Assembly (NCBI GenBank): GCA_963765895.1 | Contig: CAVXZB010000084.1 | Span: forward strand, 448,001-512,000 | Length of the DNA: 64,000 nt | Source: an uncultured Nitrososphaeraceae archaeon | Lineage (GTDB): Archaea; Thermoproteota; Nitrososphaeria; Nitrososphaerales; Nitrososphaeraceae | Direction: 5' to 3' | Shown: one piece after another, positions 28,426-52,975 of the stretch | Numbering within the stretch: position 1 is the first letter of the stretch | Layout: every line of letters begins with the position of its first letter | Translations under genes and position numbers: made by a program | The notes under the pieces: generated by a model | What the model was told of the DNA's origin: nothing | Seen by the model: only the letters and a program-made list of their open reading frames with translations | Databases searched by the model: none

Positions 28426-29011
28426 TTATGATGCTAACAACTTAAGCTGGTCATCAAGAAACGATTCATCTCCGAGATTAAATGTGAAGACAGTGGCGAC
28501 CTTCAACATTTTTTGTGCATCGAGAGGGCTATAATATTTGTTTACGATTTTTTGAAATTCAGTAAATTTCTCAAGTTTTGACATTTTTCTCAGACGTTCA
28601 ATCAAGCTAATAGATGGATTATCATTCACGGCTTGATAACACGGTGGTCGTTGAGATTTTACGAAAGTCCAATCTTGGTACTTCAGAATATGATGCCGGT
28701 GTCTCATGTGTATTATGATTATGATTATTATCGATATTGCTATAACTATTGGTATTATTATAAATTTCGTGAGTGTACATTAGAGGATTTGGATCATTAT
28801 TCTGAATTCTGGTATTGTTGTTGTTTTTTCTAAATAATAATGTGTCTATCGGTTCGTGGAATTTACCATTTAGCCTGCCAACGATATACTCAAGTGGTCG
28901 AACTATCGCGCCGTTCCCGATATGTAGATTTTGGTTATGTCTGTTAGCGGAGGACTTTCTTGTGAAGCCGGCTCCGCATATCGCACAGATCCATGTATGC
29001 TGACTATTCAT
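28426..29011 (-). CDS. C2H2 zinc-finger protein, probably split by a frameshift
   Basis: CAICGAGFTRKSSANRHNQNLH; overlapping downstream ORF 28426-28707. Confidence 0.7.
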
Positions 29012-29428: not shown

Positions 29429-31334
29429 TTATCCGCATAGCTGACCTCGCATTTGCTTAGCCATCTCACCATGTAGGCCACCAGCTGCGATGTGCCTATT
29501 AACTGCTTGATTGCATGCATCTGAAAATGCATTGTCATTTACTCCAGAATCGGAACCAGCGGCATTATTATTATTAGAACTGTCATGACCAGTCTTAACG
29601 AACCCGGTATCACTTTGGTCATTAGATGAAGGCTGTTCAGTATTGTCCTTGTTATCATCACCTGATTGAACTCCAATTACGTTAACTGCATTACCATCTC
29701 CCTGTACTTGATTAGCCAAGTTTTGGCAGTTAACATCAGATGCTCCTTTTCCGTTTCCACATACATTGGCCTGTGCAATAGATTGGCTTTGACCATGATG
29801 TCCATGTCCATTGTTGTTGTTGCTGCCACTGCCGCCGCTGCCATCTCCACTGCTACTAGTTCCACTTTGACGTACACCCAACTGTCCTGTCTGTCCAGCA
29901 TTTCCACCATTATCACTACCGTCATTATGACTATCATCATTGCCGCCTCCACCACCTGATTGAACTCCAATTACGTTAACTGCATTACCATCTCCCTGTA
30001 CTTGATTAGCCAAGTTTTGGCAGTTAACATCAGATGCTCCTTTTCCGTTTCCACATACATTGGCCTGTGCAATAGATTGGCTTTGACCATGATGTCCATG
30101 TCCATTGTTGTTGTTGCTGCCACTGCCGCCGCTGCCATCTCCACTGCTACTAGTTCCACTTTGACGTACACCCAACTGTCCTGTCTGTCCAGCATTTCCA
30201 CCATTATCACTACCGTCATTATGACTATCATCATTGCCGCCTCCACCACCTGATTGAACTCCAATTACGTTAACTGCATTACCATCTCCCTGTACTTGAT
30301 TAGCCAAGTTTTGGCAGTTAACATCAGATGCTCCTTTTCCGTTTCCACATACATTGGCCTGTGCAATAGATTGGCTTTGACCATGATGTCCATGTCCATT
30401 GTTGTTGTTGCTGCCACTGCCGCCGCTGCCATCTCCACTGCTACTAGTTCCACTTTGACGTACACCCAACTGTCCTGTCTGTCCAGCATTTCCACCATTA
30501 TCACTACCGTCATTATGACTATCATCATTGCCGCCTCCACCACCTGATTGAACTCCAATTACGTTAACTGCATTACCATCTCCCTGTACTTGATTAGCCA
30601 AGTTTTGGCAGTTAACATCAGATGCTCCTTTTCCGTTTCCACATACATTGGCCTGTGCAATAGATTGGCTTTGACCATGCTTACTTCCGTCTTTATTATG
30701 TCCCCCACTTTGTATTTGATTTCCAATATTCTGGCATTTTACGTCGCTGGCCAACTTGCCATTTCCACATACATTAGATTGTGAAATTACTTGGACTTGG
30801 TCGTTATTGTTGTTGTTATTGTTAGCTCCATTGTGATTATGACCGTTATGGTCGTTATTGTTGTGAGCTCCATTATCTTGATTGTTATTATCATTGTTAT
30901 TATTATTGTTATTATTATTGTCGCTACTAATCACTTCAAATGGTGCAGTGACAGTCTTTGAAGCATAACTGTTAGCAGAAGCTCTTGCTGCCTACATTGA
31001 AGGTACCAGTATCTGCATCTGAACTAATTCTGATGTTAAAAGTTGTTAGTCCATTATCATCTGTATGCGAAGAACCAGTAGCCACTTTACCAGAGGGTGG
31101 ATCTATCGCAAGCTTTACAAATGCATCACTGATCTTATCATTGGTATTTGCATCTCTTACAGTCACTGTGATCTTTTGTGTATCGCCTGTTTGTATTGGA
31201 TCTTGATCTACACTGATCTTCATTTTAAATTCTTTTTCTGCATAAGCTTTATTGTCTTGCACGATTCCACTGAGAGGGTTGTAGGGTAACAAATACAATT
31301 GCGCAAAAATAGAACTGCATAAAACTACTGACAA
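29429..31334 (-). CDS. Secreted protein: signal peptide + Ig-like domain + N/G/Q/H-rich Cys-paired tandem repeats (one frameshift near 30991)
   Basis: ORFs 30972-31334 and 29429-30934 join via TFNV/AARASANSYASKTVTAPFEVISSD if one G is removed. Confidence 0.8.
29659..30679. repeat. Intragenic tandem repeat, 294-bp unit (98 aa) x about 3.5, apparently identical copies
   Basis: CACCTGATTGAACTCC recurs at 29659, 29953, 30247, 30541. Confidence 0.97.
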
Positions 31335-31674
31335 CGACAGTAACGCGACTGACGGAGCTATTCGAATATGATTTACATCTCTCTTTTTACCTGAATTTAG
31401 AGGTACTCAATATTTTGTGACTAGAAGTTTGACATCCTAATTTTATTAAAGATTTAAGAATATGAATTTCATATTCGAATTTCATAATAATCTAATAAGA
31501 TGAGAATGAAGAATTAAATCATAGACGAATATAACCTAAAATAAGTTACTTTTCTTTCTATAGAACCCTTACGCACACTAATGTCTTACTAGAATTGGCC
31601 CCATCTTGATGACACGCGCATATATATCATCATCTTGCTTGCGATGTAGATTTTATTTATACCTAATCCCATAT

Positions 31675-35003: not shown

Positions 35004-35366
35004 TTAAACTTGCACCTGCTCTAGTTTCTCTAAAAGAAAATCCAGATCCACAGGTTTTCTTATACAAGAATGAACTCCTTTTTTAACAAGTTCTTCTATT
35101 TCTGAATCTATTACTGATGAAGCAGTAAATACTATAATTTTTTGTTTAGTTAAAAGTCCCTCCTTCAGAAGCGAATTAATTACATCAAATCCACTGAATT
35201 CAGGCATAGCTAAATCTAGCAGTACGATATCGAATTTTTTTTCGCGAATGAATTTTAGCCCTTCAGTTCCATTCTTTACATAGATAAATTCATGGCCACT
35301 TCCATTTAAGACTGTGTCAAGCAGTTCATTTATGTCTGTGTTATCGTCTATTCCCAGTATTTTCAT
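35004..35366 (-). CDS. Stand-alone response regulator (REC)
   Basis: GIDDN, LLDLAMPEFSG, FTAS, RKP; 4-bp overlap with the kinase. Confidence 0.93.
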   Translation of the reverse strand: MKILGIDDNTDINELLDTVLNGSGHEFIYVKNGTEGLKFIREKKFDIVLLDLAMPEFSGFDVINSLLKEGLLTKQKIIVFTASSVIDSEIEELVKKGVHSCIRKPVDLDFLLEKLEQVQV

Positions 35367-37324
35367 TTAGCTTCTTCTCTGACATCCATTACTTTTTCGC
35401 TCATTACTTTTTCGCTCATTGTTGTATTAGTTCTGTCATTTGGAATGGTGAAATAAAAGCTTGCTCCCTTTCCTAATTCGCTTTCAATCCATATCTTACC
35501 TCCTAATGATTCAATGATCCCTTTTGAGATTGCTAAGCCCAGGCCTGATCCTCCATGTTTCCTAGTCACTGAAGTGTCGATCTGGTAAAATTTATGGAAA
35601 AGATTCTTTTGTTTTTCAGGTGATATTCCTGTTCCGTTATCCTTTACATAGAAGAGTACGTCATCATCTTTACTTTGAGCACCATATTCGATTTCACCAC
35701 CTTCAGAAGGAACAAAATCGACTGCGTTAAGAATAAGGTTATTTAAAACTTGCTCTATTCTATTTCTATCTGATCTGATAGTAAGTTGCTCTTTTGTAGA
35801 GTTTATTTGTCTAATATTCTTTTGAGCCATTACATTTTGAAGGTTATTATACATATAGTTTAATAGATCATCGACATTTATAGGTTGACTATCAAACTTC
35901 ATTCTATTAAGATCAAGTTTTTGCACATCTAATATATCTCCAACTAACTGAAGTAGTCTTTTTGCATTCCTTTGAATTACATCTACTGCATTAAGTTGTT
36001 TGCTATTTAACTGTCCTATCAATTTTGGATTCTTTAGAGTCTGACACCATCCAATAATAGGAGTAAGGGGAGATTTTAATTCATGTGTAACCATCGAAGC
36101 AAATTCGTCTTTTTGTTTTTCAGTAGCATTTACTCTTTCTATCATTTCGTTAAATGCATCTATAACTTGGTTGATTTCCTTGTCCTTGCCTGTAGGATTT
36201 ATTCTTTGTAAGTCACTTACATCTTGGTTTCTACATTTCCTTGCAAAGTCTATGATGGGGCGAGTAATTCTATTTGATAGTATATATACTGCTATTAATC
36301 CACCAGCAATTACACCAAGAGATATTACCAATAGGATGACGGCAAGATTATGCAAGTTATAGTTATCAGACATCATTAATGAATATGGTTTTTCGTAAGC
36401 TAAAATCCAACCGAACATAGGTAATCGTTTGTAGACAATATAATGCAATTCTCCATTTGCAGAATACGTTACATGACCGGTATTTGTACTATTATCACTA
36501 GCTAAAATATTTCGGATGTCTTTATTAAATTCAGAAGATGCTGAAATAGTACTTATCGAAGGAAAAAAGTCTTTTGGAGACTGGCGAAAAGGTGCTGAAT
36601 TTAGACTTTGGTTGTAAACATGACCTGAGTCAGCTACCAAGTATCCTCTAGGATCAACCACATAAGCCCTACCTTGATCGACTCTGGTCATATCCTGAAA
36701 AGATTTTAGAGGCATTTCAAAATGATAAAACGCAGGTTTTGAACCGTCGTTAAGCACTATTGGAGTAGTATATGCAAAAACCCATCTTTTAGTATCAGGT
36801 GAGACATAAGGATACTGCGAATATACCTCATTAATATTTTTCTGAAACGACGGTTTAAAGAATGGCGTAGCTGCTTCTTTAGATGAGAGACTACTAAAGG
36901 GTGCGATTGTCTTCATAACCAATCTAGTGTGTTCTTGCCCTGTCCTATCTACTAAACATGTCTCGTCTACAGAGAACTTGTTCTGAAAGTCATAAATCCA
37001 CTGGTCAAGTTCGTTCTTGACGATTCTCTGTTGTGCTGTAAACTGTAGTACACCATCTTTGTATATATTTCCTGCCCGAGTATCAGGTAATTCAAAATAT
37101 TTTACAAATACCGGATTTTTGACCGCAAATAGCAAATCCTCTGAAGCTCTGGAATTAAGATTATCAATTAAATTCGCTTTGATTTCTACTTCATGACCCA
37201 TTTGTCGAAGTTGAGATTCTATTATTGCTGATTCAAGAGATTTGAAAGATATATATGAAGTAGATACAACTGCAGCGATAATAACTATTGAAAACATTAT
37301 AATTAGCTTTAATTTTATACGCAT
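35363..37324 (-). CDS. Sensor histidine kinase (dCache-like, HAMP, HisKA, HATPase)
   Basis: VTHELKSP, NLILNAVDF, DNGTG, GGSGLGL; MSEKV 15-bp duplication at the C-terminus. Confidence 0.95.
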   Translation of the reverse strand: MRIKLKLIIMFSIVIIAAVVSTSYISFKSLESAIIESQLRQMGHEVEIKANLIDNLNSRASEDLLFAVKNPVFVKYFELPDTRAGNIYKDGVLQFTAQQRIVKNELDQWIYDFQNKFSVDETCLVDRTGQEHTRLVMKTIAPFSSLSSKEAATPFFKPSFQKNINEVYSQYPYVSPDTKRWVFAYTTPIVLNDGSKPAFYHFEMPLKSFQDMTRVDQGRAYVVDPRGYLVADSGHVYNQSLNSAPFRQSPKDFFPSISTISASSEFNKDIRNILASDNSTNTGHVTYSANGELHYIVYKRLPMFGWILAYEKPYSLMMSDNYNLHNLAVILLVISLGVIAGGLIAVYILSNRITRPIIDFARKCRNQDVSDLQRINPTGKDKEINQVIDAFNEMIERVNATEKQKDEFASMVTHELKSPLTPIIGWCQTLKNPKLIGQLNSKQLNAVDVIQRNAKRLLQLVGDILDVQKLDLNRMKFDSQPINVDDLLNYMYNNLQNVMAQKNIRQINSTKEQLTIRSDRNRIEQVLNNLILNAVDFVPSEGGEIEYGAQSKDDDVLFYVKDNGTGISPEKQKNLFHKFYQIDTSVTRKHGGSGLGLAISKGIIESLGGKIWIESELGKGASFYFTIPNDRTNTTMSEKVMSEKVMDVREEAK

Positions 37325-52282: not shown

Positions 52283-52975
52283 CTACACTACATTGAAGGC
52301 TTTTTGTAACTTTGAATCGTAATTGTCTTTTTTGATTTCTAAATTGGTATTATAAATTCCATTACTTGATTGAGGTCCTATTTGTACAGTAAATGTCGCA
52401 TGTCCATCTTTATCCGTATATGCCGTTTGAGTAGTTGTTGTTGTTGTTTTGTCTATGGATGGATTGAAATTTGGTGGTTCTATGGTCAGTAGAACAAGTA
52501 CGTCAGAGATGGGTTGATCCGTATATTTATCTCTGACAGTTACACTCATGTAAGTTGTATCACCTACTTTTACGGGGTCTTTTATAATAGAATAGTCTAT
52601 GGTATACTGTTTTGAAGACTTGCAGTTAGCTATTCCACTAAACAGAGGTGCAAACTTTCCTCCAGCAATATTATCAACAGTATTACAAAAGCCCTTTCCA
52701 TCTGAGGATATACTATTTTTACCATCAAAGGCAGCTGCTTTTCCATTTCCAGAAGTATCAATATCCACATCAGCTCTGGCAGTTTGAATGATAGTAGGTA
52801 AGAGTGATAGTGGTGATGATGATGATATTGCGGGAAGTATTGAATAATTAGATAATAATACCGAAGGTGATGTCATAGTCAAGACTACAAGTAGACTAAT
52901 AATAAGCAGAAACTTGGGTTCTCTTTTCATATATCCCCTACCTTCTTTATTGTATACATGTCTATACATACTCAT
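52283..52975 (-). CDS. Secreted Ig-like-domain protein, paralog of the 30972-31334 domain
   Basis: DPVKVGDT..SVTVRD...TDKDGHATF aligns to DPIQTGDT..TVTVRD...TDDNGLTTF. Confidence 0.8.
   Translation of the reverse strand: MSMYRHVYNKEGRGYMKREPKFLLIISLLVVLTMTSPSVLLSNYSILPAISSSSPLSLLPTIIQTARADVDIDTSGNGKAAAFDGKNSISSDGKGFCNTVDNIAGGKFAPLFSGIANCKSSKQYTIDYSIIKDPVKVGDTTYMSVTVRDKYTDQPISDVLVLLTIEPPNFNPSIDKTTTTTTQTAYTDKDGHATFTVQIGPQSSNGIYNTNLEIKKDNYDSKLQKAFNVV

Follow-up and report, generated by a model that had tools for sequence, protein, structure and literature searches.

The stretch of DNA analyzed here, 64,000 nucleotides in length and called the window below, comes from an uncultured archaeon of the Nitrososphaeraceae which, judging from the presence of amoA in the same genome, is an ammonia oxidizer. 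On its minus strand, at about 29429–31410, lies a gene for a long secreted protein in which a signal peptide and an immunoglobulin (Ig)-like domain are followed by a low-complexity linker, five units of about 45 amino acids that each hold a pair of cysteines, and a short C-terminal tail. As far as can be judged from sequence, this gene is the long form of an undescribed, lineage-restricted family of extracellular proteins, which would be new as a family while being of a known kind, namely the secreted modular surface or matrix protein, possibly self-assembling. The features of the gene, from its 5' end, are the following.

31411..31520, minus strand: upstream region and putative promoter; the DNA is conserved in six congeneric genomes and holds a TATA-like box, TTTAATAAAATTA, at about 31438–31450
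31408..31410, minus strand: probable start codon TTG, kept in 5/5 congeners and out of frame in the window through the extra C near 31403
31403, minus strand: extra base (CC, against C in five congeners), causing a frameshift that separates the start codon from the signal peptide
31302..31410, minus strand: signal peptide, a basic n-region and then hydrophobic ..IAPSVALLSLSVVLCSSIFA (translation; AlphaFold2 helix at ortholog residues 19–39)
30929..31229, minus strand: Ig-like (macroglobulin MG2-like) beta-sandwich, interrupted by an extra base (weak Pfam matches, AlphaFold2, Foldseek)
30991, minus strand: extra base (GG, against G elsewhere) that splits the gene into two frames
30806..30928, minus strand: Asn/His/Asp-rich low-complexity linker, differing in length among orthologs
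30665..30805, minus strand: unit 1, diverged, with the Cys pair kept and without the GDGNAVNVIGVQ tail (hmmsearch, domain 1 of 5)
30542..30679, minus strand: unit 2, QSQSIAQANVCGNGKGASDVNCQNLANQVQGDGNAVNVIGVQ (hmmsearch with the unit profile)
30248..30385, minus strand: unit 3, the same as unit 2 (hmmsearch and Tandem Repeats Finder)
29954..30091, minus strand: unit 4, the same as unit 2 (hmmsearch and Tandem Repeats Finder)
29660..29797, minus strand: unit 5, the same as unit 2 (hmmsearch and Tandem Repeats Finder)
29659..30679, minus strand: tandem array with a period of 294 bp (a unit plus a 52-amino-acid G/S/N/D/H linker), 3.5 copies, 100% matches, score 2042 (Tandem Repeats Finder)
29432..29530, minus strand: C-terminal tail with two Cys, ..DACNQAVNRHIAAGGLHGEMAKQMRGQLCG, a predicted helical hairpin kept in the four orthologs that reach the C-terminus
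29429–29431, minus strand: stop codon (sequence)

Much of this had been recognized in a preliminary description of the window, which named a signal peptide, an Ig-like domain, a poly-Asn stretch (Asn/His on closer reading), five Cys-paired units and G/S/N/H/D linkers, and gave four of the five units the GDGNAVNVIGVQ tail; all of these are found, on the minus strand, with units 2–5 identical and unit 1 lacking the tail. With the unit profile, hmmsearch matches every one of the five units (E 2e-20 to 3e-19), and because the 294-bp period recurs with 100% matches, units 2–5 and their linkers are identical at the DNA level. The protein ends in ..QMRGQLCG, within its Cys-containing helical tail, and carries no sortase-type signal.

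The same description treated 29429..31334 as a single protein, and here its features hold while its single open reading frame (ORF) and its start do not. Minus-strand ORF calling gives two adjoining ORFs in different frames, 30972–31334 (120 amino acids), with a hydrophobic N-terminus and weak Ig-like Pfam matches, and 29429–30934 (501 amino acids, in a frame open from 30991). In the window as assembled, a TAA at 30972–30974 closes the Ig domain and the remainder of the protein stands in another frame, which opens with ..AARASANSYASKTVTAPFEV, resembling the final strands of the Ig-like domain, and continues through the Asn/His-rich linker and the five Cys-containing units into the C-terminal tail. 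The true start is probably the TTG at 31410, the conserved codon, at the equivalent of which a representative protein (P0025) also begins. A signal peptide is present as described; its proposed end at ..AYA (31239) agrees less well with the family's usual cleavage after xFA than does a candidate site, uncertain and chosen by inspection only, between the A and the Q of ..SIFAQ. The 110 bases 5' of the start codon (31411–31520) are, in the DNA alignment with five congeners, nearly as conserved among the six congeneric genomes as the coding sequence, and are a probable promoter. Contigs from two metatranscriptome libraries span 30690–31402 and both stop at 31402, a weak hint that the 5' end may lie near the start codon and that the leader may be very short; being contigs of RNA libraries, they are no proof of transcription.

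The two frame breaks could be read as errors of the assembly or as the marks of decay. Set against 5/5 congeners in the DNA alignment, the window has one G too many near 30991 and one C too many near 31403; the orthologs of these congeners are single intact ORFs that read straight through GTFNVAARAS.. (four reach the C-terminus and one ends at a contig edge). Four public runs, belonging to four studies and split evenly between DNA and metatranscriptome, supplied contigs for parts of the region 30690–31500; the base at 30991 is missing in 4/4, and one of the DNA contigs is otherwise identical to the window over 223 bases; none reaches 31403. The amoA gene, presumably essential to an ammonia oxidizer, is itself broken up in the source genome (C24:168102–168652), where the match to the archaeal AmoA profile falls into three successive pieces in different frames; the assembly is therefore taken to carry frame-breaking indel errors. 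From the congeners, the public contigs and the split amoA we read both breaks in the long gene as assembly errors and the gene as probably intact in nature, with an extent of about 29429–31410 on the minus strand, a reading made from assembled sequences.

That the window copy is a true pseudogene, a surface-protein gene in decay, seems to us very unlikely. The two extra bases themselves would be expected of such a gene, and one short paralog (C69:37147–37458) has two in-frame stops; the intact congeners, the public contigs and the three-frame amoA all speak the other way, as does an alpha/beta-hydrolase gene (L059:14009–14829; contig C19, about 172.0–172.8 kb) split into overlapping ORFs of 164 and 109 amino acids, probably through another indel error. 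In three of the four short paralogs that look truncated, moreover, the MNN.. start lies in a different frame, and two members of this trio (C19:179406–179825 and C19:166210–166449) share an identical extra T after GCTGCC, within the signal peptide, that puts the start out of frame and looks like a systematic, motif-linked sequencing error. A programmed frameshift at 30991 was ruled out, the base being simply absent from the congeners and the public contigs. The frame-breaking indels of this assembly will affect any gene call made from it.

The Ig-like domain is weak by profile and clear by structure. On the upstream ORF, Pfam gives MG2, Big_1 and Invasin_D3 at E of about 2e-4, with 22 bits against cut-offs of 33–35 and thus below threshold. 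For residues 61–160 of the intact ortholog, AlphaFold2 returns an Ig-like sandwich of seven strands at a predicted local distance difference test score (pLDDT) of 81–91, the top Foldseek match of which is the MG2 domain 2p9r_A (E 4e-7, TM score 0.82, root-mean-square deviation 2.3 Å over 102 columns), and on the strength of these models the Ig-like beta-sandwich fold is real despite the sub-threshold profiles. The domain also occurs apart from the units: a paralogous family of secreted proteins of about 200–230 amino acids (window 52286–52975, minus strand; C41:3968–4648, C73:16028–16624 and C48:116134–116733 in the same genome) shares it with the long protein, at 37% identity, and has no Cys-paired units. 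The C-terminal tail may likewise be a module found elsewhere, as a secreted metzincin-like ORF of 561 amino acids in the same genome (C64:27799–29481, minus strand; HELGHNLGLEHGG) has a poly-Pro linker followed by a tail weakly like that of the long protein (..DRHIAVRGAHGEAAQKIKDRL against ..NRHIAAGGLHGEMAKQMRGQL, E 0.027).

The Cys-paired unit is what ties the long protein to a larger family. Its consensus, about 45 amino acids in length, is Q-x3-Q-x-N-x-C-G-N-G-x2-P-x-N-[VI]-x-C-Q-N-x2-S-Q-[IV]-Q-G-x2-N-A-[VI]-x5-Q, and over 190 distinct units the positions Q5, Q9, N11, C13, G14, N15, P19, C24, Q25, N26, S29, Q30, Q32, G33, N36 and Q44 are near-invariant, the conserved positions being mainly Q, N, G and S. 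The units are hydrophilic, with a median grand average of hydropathy (GRAVY) of -0.58, 25% N+Q and 28% AVILMFW. Both cysteines are present in 188 of the 190, both are replaced by Ser in the other two, which represent two paralog types, and none has a single Cys; because the pair is kept or lost together, there is good indirect evidence that the two pair with each other, presumably in an intramolecular disulfide. A search of the source genome with the long protein brought up many small frames that resemble it, and when the unit profile was run against the 56,842 six-frame ORFs, 21 matched at E<0.01, namely the long gene and 20 short ORFs with one unit each. A typical short member begins MNNK.. 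and runs through a hydrophobic stretch ending ..AFA or ..AYA into a few residues that are basic or His, one unit and the stop codon; the mature proteins are of 45–60 amino acids behind a Sec signal. As assembled, 13 of the 20 are intact; of the other seven, three carry a frame break within the signal peptide, another is interrupted by two in-frame stops, and the last three are fragmentary or degenerate. For one short paralog compared among five congeners (a sixth sequence of different length was excluded), the ratio of nonsynonymous to synonymous substitution rates (dN/dS) is 0.00–0.19 in 10 pairs, and this paralog is by that measure under purifying selection. The number of units in the long protein varies from species to species, being 2, 3, 3 and 4 in the orthologs and 5 in the window gene, and units are alike within a species and different between species; in three orthologs Tandem Repeats Finder reports no array at a score of at least 100, since each holds fewer than two full periods.

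A survey of homologs across the Nitrososphaeraceae, such as the preliminary description had called for, shows a large family concentrated in two genera. An exhaustive profile search of 1.84 billion representative proteins yielded 436 matches at E<=1e-3 and 122 at E<=1e-10, all counted as cluster representatives, and a word-based search with one short paralog yielded 23 relatives, all annotated 'hypothetical', without Pfam domains and from metagenome-assembled genomes of the Nitrososphaeraceae; a related-locus search with the intact ortholog returned a single locus, 100% identical to the query. A profile built from 39 diverse units matches 29 of 151 genomes of the family. In the genus of the source genome 6/6 other genomes have matches, with 6 to 26 each, and in a second rich genus 14/14 do (13/13 without the unpublished G054), with 3 to at least 47; for the two rich genera together the number of family copies in a genome is put at 20 to at least 47. 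Five other genera have sporadic matches (3/21, 1/10, 2/21, 1/5 and 1/1), and there are none in the other 11 genera sampled, the four most sampled of which gave 0/21, 0/21, 0/11 and 0/7, nor in the 250 genomes sampled from 42 other families of the phylum. Short genes of the second rich genus often come three together in tandem, over about 1.2 kb, for example at G126:C3:255597–256716 and G054:C236:17080–18295. Part of the long gene is found in 20 public runs, each of them a soil, rhizosphere or paddy metagenome or unlabelled.

No entry of Pfam, NCBIfam or the PDB and no named protein-atlas cluster covers the unit family. The nearest atlas clusters are all unnamed and archaeal, and the search of named clusters gave no usable match; the best remote likeness to a solved structure (E 0.39 over 13 residues) was rejected. 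When 121 family members were scanned singly against Pfam, 58 families were weakly matched, none by more than seven members, with a best E of 0.016. The preliminary description had pointed to chaplins (DUF320, PF03777) and to curlin repeats (PF07012) as relatives to be sought by profile, and no unit matched either. PF03777 finds nothing in the long protein at E<=10 and, in the six-frame translation of the genome, one unrelated place at E 0.79 and none of the 21 family loci; PF07012 finds nothing at E<=10 in the six-frame genome or the long protein, the E. coli control scoring over the cut-off; and both are absent among the best 25 of the 58 families. On these profile results we reject membership of the unit in the chaplin or curlin families. 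True but very distant homology to either seems highly improbable: the short strings in common (NVCGN, VNVIG, QGxGN), the two Cys, the short and long forms and the Q/N richness would suit it, and they stand against the failure of both profiles, the unnamed archaeal character of the nearest clusters, and the hydrophilic nature of the unit, chaplins being described as hydrophobic (PMC5618241).

How the unit is placed in proteins was counted for 148 new representatives among the best 150 of the 436. It begins within the first 60 amino acids in 140 of the 148 and is followed by at most 15 amino acids in 63, by 16–60 in 40 and by more than 60 in 45; six have multiple units. Of 23 longer members submitted to Pfam, seven have recognizable domains behind the unit (VWA, CHRD, CARDB, an NHL propeller, a YVTN/lactonase-like propeller, a C-terminal YjcZ_2 membrane segment, and the Ig-like domain of a second long form) and 16 have none; a further search, aimed at longer relatives, brought 45 proteins of 175–337 amino acids, two with thrombospondin type 3 repeats and 43 without a Pfam domain. 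One cargo-bearing example, of 523 amino acids (L057:649–2217; G013:C89), consists of a unit, two Cys-containing Ig-like domains and YVTN-type beta-propeller repeats, and its Ig-like domains are of a kind for which the similar protein P0056 shows only a weak, sub-threshold SpaA_2 match. The preliminary description overlooked this placement of the unit, which is for the most part an N-terminal module of larger extracellular proteins, and its possible functions are for this reason wider than amyloid.

Because one and the same module occurs short, cargo-bearing and in tandem, which points to contacts between modules, we propose homotypic association as the simplest account that covers all three forms: the module would be a self-assembly and display unit for a cell coat or matrix. 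We hold this reading tentatively, at a probability of roughly 0.4. Under it, the short secreted one-module proteins would form an extracellular coat or matrix by polymerizing. Proteins that bear the module at the mature N-terminus, in front of adhesin or enzyme domains, would be incorporated in this polymer and displayed on it, and the Ig-like multi-unit protein, whose valency could change by repeat expansion, would serve to cross-link, nucleate or tether it.

A number of results weigh against self-assembly or against the form of it first suggested. The preliminary description expected a beta-solenoid from structure prediction, and AlphaFold2 gives low-confidence coil: a single unit, modeled from 121 aligned sequences, has a pLDDT of 50.8 and no secondary structure, and in the whole ortholog, modeled from an 11-row alignment, the repeat region has a pLDDT of about 25 and no strands, the remainder adding an N-terminal helix and C-terminal helices at 432–446 and 452–463 (pLDDT about 50). 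Lack of profile similarity, a globular or fully disordered predicted core and failure to form fibrils had been named in advance as what would together refute an amyloid; profile similarity is lacking, and the predicted core is low-confidence coil. The 52-amino-acid low-complexity linkers that set units 2–5 apart speak against a contiguous solenoid. An internal pseudo-repeat of 21 residues within the unit was considered and dropped, offset 21 ranking first among long overlaps with a score that was negative and non-significant, and hhalign of the two halves finding nothing. The hydrophilic, Q/N-rich composition makes a water-repellent coat of the chaplin type impossible. Finally, no assembly or secretion genes recur beside the long gene or the short paralogs in 21 neighborhoods. 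A low-confidence AlphaFold2 model is not evidence of disorder and is compatible with folding that depends on assembly; the failure to obtain a confident monomer fold despite 121 sequences would, weakly, even fit folding on assembly.

The same models might instead be taken at face value, the unit then being a hydrophilic and largely disordered protectant or spacer that holds water or confers tolerance to desiccation, with no specific assembly. Such a role, to which we give little credence, would suit the coil in both AlphaFold2 runs, the composition, the G/S/N/D/H linkers and the soil, rhizosphere or paddy origin of the public runs with the gene; against it, disordered protectants do not hold some 15 positions nearly invariant, together with a Cys pair that covaries, over 190 distinct units.

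More serious is the possibility that the contacts are heterotypic. Domains such as SLH or LysM attach extracellular domains to the cell in bacteria, and the unit might in the same manner bind a common component of the envelope, be it the S-layer protein, a glycan or a lipid, thereby attaching diverse extracellular domains, with the Ig protein as a multivalent binder. In 45 of the 148 representatives the unit does open the mature protein, with Pro-rich linkers and adhesin-type domains behind it, most cargo-bearing members have no obvious C-terminal anchor, and tandem copies would raise avidity. An anchor of this sort is hard to reconcile with the 63 of the 148 representatives, and the majority of the 20 paralogs, that are a unit alone with at most 15 amino acids behind it, since an anchor without cargo, in 20 to at least 47 copies and under purifying selection, would need explaining; nor does the unit resemble any known binding domain. 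We consider it the main rival to self-assembly, and unlikely.

The short members alone might also suggest soluble effectors, that is, disulfide-looped peptides with metal-binding, signaling or antimicrobial roles, as would be in keeping with their small mature size, Sec signal, single presumed disulfide and many paralogs. In one subfamily the likely cleavage site is followed at once by His-rich tracts (GGHHHH, HHHNHHHNHHH, KKHRHHHH), which immediately precede the unit (in the same genome, for example, C19:198875–199126, C78:5617–5994 and C10:23480–23668). A mature N-terminus of the form X-X-His is the pattern of amino-terminal Cu/Ni-binding motifs, and cleavage after AxA would give such N-termini in several short paralogs; when a crude heuristic was used to place the cleavage site in 141 sequences, His fell at mature position 3 in 26 and elsewhere among the first six residues in a further 20. 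Copper acquisition genes figure in the biofilm response of ammonia-oxidizing archaea (AOA) (10.1101/2024.11.18.624116). Set against this are the 95 of the 141 that have no His near the N-terminus, invariant residues (N, Q, G and S) that are not metal ligands, the fusion of the module to large structural domains, the lack of immunity or transporter genes near the family genes, and a strong purifying selection that speaks against arms-race peptides, and we think such a role improbable. Bacteriocins and other ribosomally synthesized and post-translationally modified peptides (RiPPs) in particular are ruled out by the Sec signals, the large-domain fusions, the purifying selection and the same lack of transporter and immunity genes.

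If the module does self-assemble, several known systems offer themselves for comparison. A short module that recurs on unrelated extracellular proteins of one organism, and in tandem in a scaffold, is familiar from dockerin/cohesin and SLH systems; the archaeal module is likewise found on many unrelated extracellular proteins and in tandem in one scaffold-like protein, and it differs in standing on cargo-type and scaffold-type proteins both, in mostly standing alone, and in having no similarity to these systems in sequence or fold. With respect to chaplins, the two Cys are 10 residues apart in the archaeal unit and farther apart in chaplins; we know of no description of the chaplin domain as an N-terminal tag on many larger proteins. 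Chaplins are described as a secreted multigene family with short one-domain forms of about 45–55 amino acids and long multi-domain forms, two Cys in a presumed intramolecular disulfide, and, in the model given, co-assembly of short forms with tethered long ones (PMC5618241). On that account the archaeal family is similar in being secreted and multigene, in its short one-module and long multi-module forms, in its two Cys and in its rare members without both, the S/S paralog types recalling ChpE, reported as the sole chaplin lacking the pair (PMC5618241); the proposed logic of short subunits and a tethered long form would be common to the two as well. It differs in its hydrophilic module, in having no match to the profile, no sortase signal and no peptidoglycan, and in a long form with an Ig-like domain and low-complexity linkers. 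Of the chaplin likeness in the preliminary description, then, the organization stands (about 20 short one-unit secreted paralogs, a long multi-unit protein, a joint Cys pair) and kinship in sequence does not, and the analogy would hold in a functional sense only.

In composition the unit is nearer to curli than to chaplins. CsgA and CsgB, so far as they are described in PMC7582709, are also secreted, hydrophilic and rich in Q, N, G and S, with conserved Gln and Asn and several copies of the motif per protein, and the major and minor curli proteins carry one common repeat. Differences lie in the 52-amino-acid linkers, the presumed disulfide within the unit, the lack of a profile match and of an AlphaFold2 solenoid, and the lack of a csg-like operon, no csg-type secretion or nucleation operon being found near the family genes. 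Functional amyloid has precedent in Archaea in the form of Methanosaeta MspA, the Methanospirillum sheath protein and the biofilm matrix of Haloferax volcanii (PMC7582709, PMC6242892), which are extracellular structural proteins too; by their descriptions there, these are large euryarchaeal sheath proteins (MspA of about 60 kDa) or matrix proteins not yet identified, with no multigene modules of 45 amino acids.

Self-assembly also has a more specific version, which we regard as doubtful, true cross-beta amyloid being about half as probable as self-assembly itself: two genera of soil AOA would build a coat or biofilm scaffold from dozens of 45-amino-acid, disulfide-stapled, Q/N-rich subunits in a cross-beta, curli-like polymer, with the module as docking tag for VWA, CHRD, CARDB and propeller domains and the Ig-like protein as nucleator or tether. 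If true, this would be a chaplin and curli analogue of independent origin that also displays cargo, and Nitrososphaerota would have its first functional amyloid system.

In the genomic surroundings of the family genes, response regulators and histidine kinases are the only recurrent neighbors. The long gene has as neighbors a Mre11/Rad50-like gene, ComA, an ABC substrate-binding protein and a two-component system, and the cluster of short paralogs on contig C19 is set among housekeeping genes. Response regulators and histidine kinases are abundant in genomes of this family, and the recurrence of single-domain response regulators in 6/21 neighborhoods and of Cache-domain histidine kinases in 4/21 (in the window at 35004–37324, minus strand) may be chance. 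Directly downstream of the long gene (28622–29011, minus strand) is an ORF that starts MNSQHTWICAICGAGFTRKSSANRHNQNLH and has the look of a C2H2-type zinc finger with an Asn-rich tail, with no Pfam match at E<=0.001, and about 10 kb from the gene lies a DDE transposase ORF (PF01609; 41996–42880, plus strand).

Soil AOA are reported to live mostly in aggregates and biofilms, with attachment poorly understood and adhesion proteins patchy among lineages (10.1101/2024.11.18.624116), and the text of that preprint, as far as it was available, mentions neither amyloid nor proteins of this sort. The preliminary description knew of no account of such a system, and in open-access papers and bioRxiv preprints we likewise found none of the unit family. 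Given the copy number in the two rich genera (20 to at least 47 per genome), the purifying selection and the presence of the gene in metatranscriptome contigs, the family is likely a major constituent of the surface or matrix of cells in these lineages. Even without self-assembly the unit defines a new extracellular domain family; if the module does self-assemble, it would be an independently evolved archaeal counterpart of chaplins and curli with a built-in display of other proteins, and a compact, genetically encodable tag of possible use in materials.

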